Shown here piece by piece: positions 59,723 to 62,978 of a stretch of 64,000 nucleotides of DNA (its first letter is position 1; each line of letters opens with the position of its first letter). Location: assembly GCA_964587425.1 (NCBI GenBank), contig CAZPLB010000003.1, positions 60,763 through 124,762 of the forward strand. The letters run 5' to 3'. The notes under the pieces were generated by a model that had not been told where the DNA came from, searched no databases, and saw nothing but the letters and a program-made list of their open reading frames with translations. A program made the translations under genes and the position numbers. This DNA comes from an uncultured Gammaproteobacteria bacterium (GTDB taxonomy: Bacteria; Patescibacteriota; Microgenomatia; UBA8517).

Positions 59723-60373
59723 ATGGAAATAACATATCTGGGTCAGTCCTCCTTTAAGATTAAAACAAAGAATTCTATAGTCATTACTGATCCATTTGAT
59801 CCAAAGATGGTAGGACTAAAGTTTGAAAAGCAGGAAGCAAACATTGTGACTGTCTCCCACCACCATAATGACCACGACAATCTTGGAGCGATCGATGGAA
59901 CCATGAAAGTTATAGATGGCCCTGGGGAATATGACATTGCAGACGTTGCAGTACGAGGTTTTAAAACATATCACGATAATTCAGAAGGCAAAGAAAGAGG
60001 AAAAAACACAATTTATGTTATCGAAGCAGACGGAGTAAAGGTATTGCATCTTGGAGACTTGGGTCACAAATTATCAGAAGGTCTGCTTAAGGAATTGGGG
60101 AGTATTGATGTCGTCATAGTTCCAGTTGGGGGAGTGTACACACTAAATGGGAAAGAGGCAGTTGAGGTAGTAAGGCAAATCGAACCAACCATCACTATTC
60201 CAATGCATTTTAAAGTAGATGGTATGGCTCCAGACCTTGCCAAAGATATGGAAACTGTAGATCCATTCTTAAGTGAATTAGGAGGAAGAGTTGAAAGAAT
60301 GCAAAAATTATCACTCAAAGCTGCTGATTTAACGAGCGAGGAGGCACATGTCGTCGTCCTTGAAAAGAAGTAG
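59723..60373 (+). CDS. MBL-fold metal-dependent hydrolase (UPF0173/UlaG-like)
   Basis: 216 aa; 'VSHHHNDHD' metal-binding motif, 'HLGDLGH'. Confidence 0.7.
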   Translation: MEITYLGQSSFKIKTKNSIVITDPFDPKMVGLKFEKQEANIVTVSHHHNDHDNLGAIDGTMKVIDGPGEYDIADVAVRGFKTYHDNSEGKERGKNTIYVIEADGVKVLHLGDLGHKLSEGLLKELGSIDVVIVPVGGVYTLNGKEAVEVVRQIEPTITIPMHFKVDGMAPDLAKDMETVDPFLSELGGRVERMQKLSLKAADLTSEEAHVVVLEKK

Positions 60374-62978
60374 TTCTCCAAAAGTCCCGCCCCATTCAAC
60401 AGAAGCTGAAATTTCAGTTTTAGGTGCACTTCTTTTGGACAAAGACGCAATAGTAAATGTAGCAGAATTCCTGGAGGGAAGGCATTTCTATGATGAAAGG
60501 CACCAAGAAATATATGAAACCATTCTTGTGCTTTACGAAGAAAGATCTCCGATTGATATCTTAACTGTCTCAGATAGACTCAAGAAAAGAAAAACCTTGA
60601 AGAAAGTAGGAGGATCTTCATATCTCTCGGATTTAGTAAATAAAGTTCCAACCTCAGCCCACATTGAGCATTATGGAAAAATAGTGAAAGATGCCAGTAC
60701 AAAAAGATCTCTTTTAAACGCAGCCATGCAGCTAGTTGATTTTTCCTTTGATGAAGGGCTTGGTGCAAACGAACTGCTGGACAAAGCAGAAGCAGAAATT
60801 TTCTCCCTCACCCAAAAACATCTCTCCCAAAGTTTTACTCCAGTCAGAGCCGCTCTTGCTGATTCATTTGATAGGCTAGATGAACTACATAAACTAGATT
60901 CCAACCTTAGAGGGGTTCCAACTGGTTTTGCAGATCTAGACAATCTTCTTGCAGGACTCCAAAAATCAAACCTCATAATCCTTGCAGCAAGGCCAGGTGT
61001 TGGGAAAACTTCGCTTGCCTTGAATATTGGCCAGCACTTGGCAGTCACCCATAAACGCCCTGTCGGTTTCTTCTCACTTGAAATGAGCAAGGAGGAATTG
61101 GTGGACAGACTTCTTGTGGCCCAAGCAGATATTGATGCTTGGAAATTAAAAACTGGAAAGTTAAACAACGACGATTTCACAGCCCTTAGTAACGCAATGG
61201 GGGAGTTGGCAGAAGCACCTTTTTACATAGACGACACCCCAGCCCTTTCCATTCTTGAAATGAGAACAAAGGCAAGAAGACTGCAGGTGGAGTATGGAAT
61301 TGATCTTCTCATAGTTGATTACCTACAGCTTGCAAGAAGTAGAAACCTTGAGAATAGAGTTCAAGAGGTTTCAGAAATCTCACAAGGCTTAAAAAACTTA
61401 GCCAGGGAACTAAAGATTCCAGTCCTAACTCTTTCCCAGCTTTCAAGAGCTGTAGAACAAAGAGGAACCAAAAAACCTCAGCTTGCAGATCTTCGTGAAT
61501 CAGGATGTTTGCTGGGGGAAACTTTGATACTCAACGCAGAAACTGGTGAGCGTAAAACAATTGAATCTCTAGTAGGGGAAGAAAACATCAAAATACTTGC
61601 AATGGACGAAAATCTGAAAATTATACCAGCTGAAGTAAGTAAGATTTTTAAAAGTGGAAAGAAAATGGTCTACAAAATGACGCTAAAAAGCGGCAGAGTA
61701 ATAAACGCCTCTGGAAATCATCCATTCCTAAAGGTTCAGGATTGGGAAAGACTTGATAATTTGAATATTGGCGACAGAATCGCTGCCCCTAGATTAATCA
61801 ATAATGAAACCAAGAATGCGGTTGAACTATCCGACAACAAATTAATTCTCTTAGCTCATTTAATAGGGGATGGATGCTATGTTAAAAGGCAACCCCTGCA
61901 CTACACAAATTCTGAAATAAAGCTGATTGAAATAGTTAAAGACACAGCCCTTTCTGAATTCAAAATAAAACCTCGAATAGTAAAACAAGAAAATTGGTAT
62001 CACCTATATCTTCCATCAATTGAAAAATTGGCTCGTGGAAAAAGAAACCCAATTGTTAGGTGGTTGGATGAAGAATTGAGTATTTATGGCCAACATTCCA
62101 GACAAAAAGAAATCCCATCAATTGTTATGACACAACCAAAGGAAAAACTAGCTGTATTCCTCAAAAATTTATGGGCAACAGATGGTTGTATCCACCTAAA
62201 TTCAAATCTCCAAGGACCAAAAGTAAGAATTTACTACGCTTCAGGCAGTTGGAAGCTTGCAGAGGGAGTTGCCCATCTTCTTCTTAGATTTGGAATAATA
62301 TCAACAATTAGAGCAGGCCACAAGGCAGGCTATGAGGTTGTTTGGCAGGTTCATGTACAAGGAAAAGTTGATCAATTAAATTTCCTGCAAAAAATTGGCT
62401 GTGTTGGGAAGAAAGAAGATTTTTGCAAGAAAGCGATCACTATTCTTCAAAATATCAAAGAAAATCCAAACAATGATGTAATTCCAAAAGAAATATGGAA
62501 TTACATTGAAAAACTAAGAATAGAAAGAGGGCTATCTACTCGTCAGTTCCATCATGAAATGGGTTGGGCATATAGTGGAACACAAAGATTAAAAAATGGA
62601 GTAAGCAGAAAAAGACTAGTGGAAATTTTAAAAGTACTTGAAAACAAAGAACTCGAGTCTTTTGCACAGTCAGATATCTATTGGGATGAGGTTAAAAGTG
62701 TCGAAAAGATAGGAATCAAAGATGTATATGACATGACTGTTCCCATATATGCAAATTTCATCGCCAATGATATTGTAGTTCACAACAGTATAGAGCAAGA
62801 TGCCGACGTAGTAATGTTTTTGTGGAGAGAGGATGAAGAGAAATTGGAAGACATGATTCTTGAAATTTCAAAACATAGAAATGGACCCCTTGGACAAGTG
62901 AAGCTTCACTTCAAGGGTGATAGAATAAGGTTCTATGGACGTGAAACAAAACACCAGCAAAGCCCGCAAGGAAAGTAG
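60348..62978 (+). CDS. dnaB: Replicative DNA helicase DnaB, interrupted by an in-frame intein
   Basis: 876-aa ORF; N-terminal '[17 protein letters not shown]'; Walker A '[12 protein letters not shown]'; '[11 protein letters not shown]'; the C-terminal '[16 protein letters not shown]' follows a 427-aa insertion. The extein is ~449 aa. Confidence 0.9.
   Translation: [876 protein letters not shown]
61506..62786 (+). mobile_element. DnaB intein (427 aa) with LAGLIDADG homing-endonuclease domain
   Basis: Begins with Cys after '...DLRESG' (block A 'CLLGETLIL'); block B 'SGNHPF'; LAGLIDADG motifs '[14 protein letters not shown]' and '[17 protein letters not shown]'; ends '[21 protein letters not shown]' followed by Ser of the C-extein. 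This is the canonical DnaB insertion site. Confidence 0.85.

Follow-up and report, generated by a model that had tools for sequence, protein, structure and literature searches.

A predicted class-1 intein with a double-motif LAGLIDADG endonuclease at the H4 site of dnaB in a Woesebacteria/Microgenomates-type Patescibacterium

The H4 insertion site of the replicative helicase DnaB is a classic one, known since the 1990s, and both the site and the intein family occupying it have decades of study and biotechnological use behind them. The natural DnaB intein of Synechocystis sp. PCC6803 (Ssp) is a class-1 intein of 429 aa that contains a LAGLIDADG endonuclease and lies at RESG/SIEQD (a slash within a motif marks the insertion or splice point). 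The structures solved for the DnaB inteins of Ssp (1MI8, 6FRG/6FRH/6FRE) and Nostoc punctiforme (Npu; 4O1R) are those of engineered mini-inteins lacking the endonuclease. The Mycobacterium tuberculosis (Mtu) intein and M. smegmatis (Msm) DnaBi2 are likewise class-1 inteins at this position, with Cys1, Ser+1, and a homing endonuclease, whereas Msm DnaBi1 and the M. leprae intein, although residing in the same host protein, are class-3 mini-inteins without an endonuclease, inserted at GK/S in the P-loop (PMC6195587; PMC7360933). Three DnaB insertion sites have been defined in all, with sites a and c lying two residues apart in motif H4 and site b in the P-loop (PMC4760082; PMC6195587). DnaB is the most frequent bacterial intein host, with 317 inteins in a 2015 survey in which Patescibacteria are not among the listed phyla (PMC4760082). 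Here, we describe a dnaB gene found in a 64-kb stretch of DNA from an uncultured bacterium (hereafter the window; contig CAZPLB010000003.1, positions 60,763 to 124,762). The locus is best read, with a probability that we put at about 0.9, as the chromosomal dnaB of a Woesebacteria/Microgenomates-type Patescibacterium, containing an in-frame, canonical class-1 intein with a double-motif LAGLIDADG endonuclease at H4 site a.

The dnaB precursor, comprising N-extein, intein, and C-extein, is encoded on the plus strand at 60348..62978 by a single ATG-initiated frame of 876 codons plus stop, as given by both the open reading frame (ORF) list and the translation of the window, and the frame is uninterrupted over its 2631 nt. 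The encoded protein matches NF005852, the NCBIfam curated equivalog for intein-containing replicative DNA helicases, with a score of 1002.9 bits against a cutoff of 780, and does so from end to end (protein 4-862, profile 14-880 of 886 positions); the intein alone aligns with profile positions 398-826 (E 3.7e-136). This model presumably represents the mycobacterial DnaB inteins. In Pfam searches of the precursor, the DnaB N-terminal domain (PF00772) was found at aa 14-115, and DnaB_C (PF03796) in two stretches, the first at aa 189-387. Among the NCBI-derived entries of the protein collection is an identical protein (P0001), encoded on a 148-kb contig.

The initial annotation had proposed that DnaB is interrupted by a 427-aa intein at 61506-62786, and its coordinates and residues were reproduced exactly from the translation. 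The intein (61506..62786, plus strand; precursor aa 387-813, 1281 nt) starts at Cys387 with CLLGETLIL... and closes with ...NDIVVHN at aa 813, Gly386 being the last residue of the N-extein and Ser814 the first of the C-extein; the Cys at its start, the His-Asn at its end, the Ser thereafter, splicing blocks A, B, F, and G, and two LAGLIDADG motifs were all located as had been described. The N-extein (aa 1-386; 60348..61505, plus strand) contains the DnaB N-terminal domain and most of the RecA-like ATPase domain and ends in ...LRESG, the first half of motif H4, and the C-extein (62787..62978, plus strand; 63 aa plus stop) supplies the other half of this motif and runs on to the C-terminus. Joining the exteins in silico gives a protein of 449 aa, and its earlier description as a normal DnaB of about that length proved sound: it contains both DnaB domains and the Walker A motif, has an equivalog-level score with TIGR00665 DnaB (517 bits, cutoff 385), and aligns without gaps over the junction with Geobacillus stearothermophilus DnaB 2R6A (E 2e-116). 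Furthermore, excision merges the two stretches of DnaB_C into one, covering profile positions 1-253 of 255 and raising the Pfam score from 309 to 332 bits. Exact removal of the in-frame insert thus regains a contiguous, conserved host protein, as is characteristic of a class-1 intein, and the junction so formed also agrees with that of an intein-free ortholog described below.

The insertion lies between Gly386 and Ser814, at RESG/SIEQD in the DNA-binding loop of motif H4, and hence at site a. It had been described as a P-loop-domain site, which is right in that the position falls inside the P-loop NTPase (RecA-like) domain, but not with respect to the P-loop itself. Indeed, site b (GK/S or GK/T in Walker A) was considered and rejected: the Walker A motif GVGKT (aa 217-221; 60996..61010, plus strand), which is the site b of other species, is unbroken and empty here, with GVGKTS continuous at aa 217-222 and the intein located 165 residues downstream. 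Among relatives, four proteins of about 1300-1370 aa (P0002, P0003, P0076, and P0118) contain a second intein in the P-loop (GK/C...HN/T or HN/S, site b), and another (P0051) contains a second intein at RE/SGAIEQD, two residues upstream, which corresponds to site c. Thus, all three literature-defined sites are occupied among the DnaB proteins of the Patescibacteria radiation, and their positions are distinct.

The two ends of the intein form a HINT splicing domain. The N-terminal lobe (intein aa 1-101; 61506..61808, plus strand), with Cys1 in block A and S69-x-x-H72 in block B, matches residues 8-108 of the Ssp DnaB mini-intein (72.7 bits) and the intein N-terminal region model TIGR01445 (45.1 bits, cutoff 24.5), and the C-terminal lobe (intein aa 381-427; 62646..62786, plus strand), with Asp409 in block F and ...VVHN in block G, matches residues 114-159 of the same mini-intein (43.5 bits) and the C-terminal region model TIGR01443 (23.2 bits, cutoff 15.6). 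Pfam Intein_splicing was also detected (E 7e-29; 4e-28 in the precursor), a match that chance would not produce. The splicing blocks can be aligned with those of known inteins: both lobes (aa 2-101 and 381-426) are homologous to those of Ssp (1MI8/6FRG) and Npu (4O1R), with E values of 7e-33 to 4e-23 (about 1e-31 for the Ssp structure), and the C-terminal block ...NF[IV]ANDI[IV]VHN is common to all three. The two grounds on which the initial annotation might have failed, a DnaB left broken by the excision and blocks unlike those of known inteins, were thus both put to the test and did not apply. In contrast to the solved mini-inteins, the intein in the window has an endonuclease region, and its host belongs to Patescibacteria rather than Cyanobacteria, with sequences that have substantially diverged. 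With the Mtu intein and Msm DnaBi2, the intein has in common the site, the class-1 residues Cys1 and Ser+1, and a homing endonuclease region, and their hosts, unlike that of the window, are actinobacterial.

The catalytic residues were assessed in an alignment of 106 homologous same-site inteins of 400-440 aa. Cys1, His72, Asp409, His426, and Asn427 are invariant, and position 69 of block B (S69-G-N-H72 here) is Ser in 85 and Thr in the other 21. The block A and B residues, the Asp of block F, the His-Asn of block G, and Ser814 at position +1 are those of a class-1 intein. Cys1 is the sole cysteine of the splicing lobes, the other four (124, 228, 299, and 307) being located in the endonuclease/linker region. 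Modeling of the whole precursor with AlphaFold2, from 63 aligned sequences, gave a mean predicted local distance difference test score (pLDDT) of 84.6, with values above 90 in most 10-residue blocks of the intein. In this model, both ends of the intein are beta-rich lobes, and between them lie two alpha/beta half-domains, each starting with a LAGLIDADG helix (precursor 496-508 and 598-612) that is followed by beta-strands, and an extra helical region precedes the C-terminal lobe. When this model was compared with PDB structures by Foldseek, the 50 matches listed were all DnaB chains and gave no information on the intein fold.

Translation would thus be expected to yield an 876-aa precursor, from which the intein would be released by the steps of established intein chemistry: an N-S acyl shift at Cys1, trans-esterification by attack of Ser+1 on the thioester, cyclization of Asn427 with the assistance of His426, which would free the intein, and an O-N shift producing a normal peptide bond in a 449-aa DnaB with an intact H4 motif. 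Splicing probably does occur, and would be necessary if dnaB is present as a single copy.

The endonuclease domain, together with a helical linker/DNA-recognition region, is assigned to intein aa 102-380 (61809..62645, plus strand) on the basis of Pfam LAGLIDADG_3 (PF14528), a weak match to PI-PkoII, and predicted secondary structure, in which the helices and beta-hairpins of two LAGLIDADG half-domains are present as expected. PF14528 matches intein aa 215-298 with 79.1 bits against a cutoff of 22.5 (E 3e-22; 2e-21 in the precursor). Motif 1 (LAHLIGDG; intein aa 113-125; 61842..61880, plus strand) places Asp122, and motif 2 (LWATDG; intein aa 215-229; 62148..62192, plus strand) places Asp226, at the catalytic position, with Asp found at these positions in 103 and 105 of the 106 homologs, respectively. 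Two helices ending in conserved acidic residues, combined with the match to the family profile, are what is expected of a double-motif LAGLIDADG enzyme. In the same 106 homologs, the endonuclease core (aa 102-300) shows a mean identity to the query of 54%, compared with 49% and 57% in the splicing lobes, and few indels. PI-SceI and PI-PfuI are further intein-encoded LAGLIDADG homing endonucleases. As in PI-PkoII (2CW7; E 2.8e-5), two motifs in one chain are nested in a HINT domain, but intein-encoded enzymes of this kind belong to other host genes and are only distantly related to the enzyme in the window, which is predicted from sequence. The intein thus appears complete, with all the parts of a class-1 splicing element and of an undamaged double-motif homing endonuclease; it would splice and cleave, and the endonuclease is likely to be still active. 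It would be expected to cut intein-less dnaB alleles at a GAA-TCA-GGA/AGT-ATA-GAG-type target, and repair of the cut allele would copy the intein in (homing), which would explain a patchy distribution of the intein.

A protein-collection search showed that the arrangement is widespread, with a Cys start and an HN/S end at RESG/SIEQD in at least 110 of the 120 top homologs, mostly with inteins of 420-430 aa. More than 100 DnaB proteins of Patescibacteria contain a homologous intein at H4 site a, and the best relatives are labelled Candidatus Woesebacteria, Microgenomates, Pacebacteria, Chisholmbacteria, Roizmanbacteria, Berkelbacteria, or "Patescibacteria group"; the taxonomic placement given here is drawn from such homologs. 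Further carriers, with a match spanning the intein, were found in a genome-collection scan among Aquificota-type metagenome-assembled genomes (MAGs), Ignavibacteriae, Chloroflexi, and Saccharibacteria. Identity to the protein of the window is at most 63% for the intein and at most 80% for the exteins of intein carriers; with the spliced extein as query, the 120 best matches were all intein-free DnaB proteins of 432-459 aa with 76-83% identity. Many contigs whose DnaB is 72-82% identical to this Woesebacteria-type DnaB (L003, L015, L028, L029, L032, L038, and many others) have the title "uncultured Gammaproteobacteria bacterium"; such labels on these MAGs are probably wrong.

The initial annotation had called for a search for an empty site in related strains, and one was found. 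The closest intein-free relative, P0121 at locus L001 (GCA_040961665.1), has a junction peptide identical to that of the spliced DnaB, and the order of genes upstream is the same as in the window (EamA transporter, histidyl-tRNA synthetase (HisRS)-like protein, 337-aa protein, metallo-beta-lactamase (MBL)-fold hydrolase, and dnaB), indicating that this is an orthologous empty site. At the junction of this intein-less dnaB, the DNA reads ...CGCGAGAGCGGA before and TCAATAGAACAAGATGC... after the insertion point. In a neighbor-joining tree of 220 exteins, the protein of the window belongs to a clade of 23 in which no other member has the intein. The 25 exteins nearest to it all lack the intein as well, and the distribution over the 220 tips calls for a minimum of 10 gains or losses. 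Degenerate derivatives also occur: P0106 at L021 (single-amplified genome AM-312-A20, JBHPHS010000001.1), whose DnaB is 73% identical to the protein of the window in the best-aligned segment, contains a natural 217-aa mini-intein at H4 site a from which the LAGLIDADG domain has been deleted, and P0055 and P0087 contain shortened inteins of 346-352 aa. These derivatives fit the standard cycle of invasion, endonuclease decay, and loss. With respect to possible vectors, a scan with the intein found no close relative in viral contigs, and tblastn against 50,697 phage records found no phage vector, only distant inteins of at most 27% identity located in terminase, RecA, and helicase genes.

Several observations weigh against the reading of the locus as a splicing intein with a functional homing endonuclease. 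Both activities are predicted from sequence, and the endonuclease could be inactive even though its motifs are intact; the 64 kb in view leave room for a second dnaB copy elsewhere in the genome; the tree sample is biased, with 120 sequences picked for the presence of the intein and 120 by extein score; and a compositional trace of recent transfer, sought by means of GC content at third codon positions (GC3), was not found, the value for the intein being 0.290 compared with a genome mean of 0.298 +/- 0.029. Together with the 63% identity of the nearest intein, a GC3 at the genome mean gives no sign of a very recent invasion. The same lack of a close intein relative among those sampled (at most 63% identity), the fully ameliorated composition, and the degenerate derivatives in relatives (P0106, 217 aa; P0055 and P0087, 346-352 aa) would suit an intein whose splicing domain is active and whose homing endonuclease is dead, a remnant passed on by vertical descent and retained only because its exact deletion is hard to achieve. 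We consider such a remnant possible but rather unlikely, as both LAGLIDADG acidic residues are kept, with at least 97% conservation, the endonuclease core is conserved like the splicing lobes and has few indels, and the presence of the intein on the extein tree is patchy, the window containing a lone carrier among 22 intein-free neighbors. The patchiness, which is clear despite the sampling bias and typical of homing elements, and the isolation of this carrier are better explained by gain through homing than by a large number of separate precise losses. That the insert is instead an assembly chimera, a domain insertion, or a sign of a pseudogenized dnaB has nothing in its favor beyond the uncultured type of the genome and the 64 kb in view, and is effectively refuted: the 2631-nt frame is unbroken, the edges of the insert fall exactly at Cys1 and HN/S, the architecture is common to more than 100 independent assemblies, the curated equivalog threshold of NF005852 is exceeded, and relatives have their only dnaB at the syntenic position.

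The initial annotation had also raised the possibility of a conditional switch on replication. In such a case the intein would be domesticated, with splicing conditional on redox, metals, or temperature and gating helicase maturation, and hence replication, in a small-genome bacterium. Insertion in a critical DNA-binding loop suggests that the unspliced precursor should be inactive, and conditional splicing is known for another DnaB intein, Msm DnaBi1 (PMC6195587; PMC7360933), which splices conditionally through a Cys-Cys disulfide trap under oxidation and is zinc-sensitive (PMC6195587; PMC7360933); the intein family is, moreover, widely retained in Patescibacteria. However, DnaBi1, a class-3 mini-intein located in the P-loop (site b), is unrelated to the intein in the window. 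For the site-a inteins Msm DnaBi2 and Mtu DnaBi, splicing is essentially complete when the cells are harvested, and reactive oxygen or nitrogen species leave DnaBi2 unaffected (PMC6195587). Cys1 being the only cysteine of the splicing lobes, no disulfide trap is evident, and the fact that the closest relatives live without the intein argues against a required regulatory role. The switch is thus unsupported, the mycobacterial site-a inteins tested being fast and DnaBi2 stress-insensitive, and we regard it as improbable. Just as little credence is given to the broader idea that Patescibacteria keep DnaB inteins (at sites a, b, and c, and sometimes two per protein) for function, with conditional splicing in the H4 loop throttling replication in an ultra-small, host-dependent bacterium. 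A weaker but likelier proposal is that the DnaB proteins of Patescibacteria harbor a large stock of actively homing inteins, most of them undescribed; a literature search for papers linking inteins with the candidate phyla radiation (CPR) or Patescibacteria found none of relevance.

With the interpretation as a homing class-1 intein preferred, the significance of the locus is small beyond correct annotation. The dnaB intein is of a known kind, an ordinary example of a very well characterized family in its most common bacterial host, although the nearest sampled intein is only about 63% identical to this allele. The proper annotation is a single dnaB with two products, a mature helicase of 449 aa and an intein of 427 aa, and not a "long" helicase of 876 aa. 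In addition, the intein-less alleles of close relatives define a candidate target of the homing endonuclease, and the Patescibacteria variants, including the natural 217-aa mini-intein, offer modest extra sequence diversity for intein engineering.

The genes around dnaB are ordinary chromosomal genes. Preceding dnaB are those for an EamA transporter, the HisRS-like protein, a 336-aa protein that is secreted or anchored in the membrane, and the MBL-fold hydrolase. It is followed by a 69-aa ORF without a family match (62982-63191, plus strand) and by genes for VKOR and DoxX, and topoisomerase I and a P-type ATPase are encoded elsewhere in the window. The end of the MBL-fold (Lactamase_B_3) gene overlaps the start of dnaB by 26 nt (60348-60373), and the same overlap is found at L001 (4001-4026); its retention in the intein-free ortholog suggests a conserved translational coupling and supports the ATG at 60348 as the true start. 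Downstream of dnaB, synteny with L001 breaks, L001 having an AEP-like (primase-type) gene on the opposite strand (5353-5967, minus strand). Three antisense ORFs, at 60671-61180, 60580-60768, and 60064-60450, were rejected as spurious; they lie wholly inside strongly supported coding sequence.

In the window, no intein domain was detected in the further ORFs that were scanned. Across the 64 kb, no tRNA or transfer-messenger RNA was detected by ARAGORN, and there was no Rfam match at the gathering threshold. A 693-aa ORF with a TTG start at 30616-32697 (plus strand) matched no Pfam family at E <= 0.001. The HisRS-like gene at 57225-58157 (minus strand), which lies next to the EamA gene in L001 too, encodes a 310-aa protein whose sole match is to the catalytic core of histidyl-tRNA synthetase (tRNA-synt_His). 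As this is shorter than expected for a full HisRS, the protein may be either a truncated form of that enzyme or a paralog resembling HisZ.

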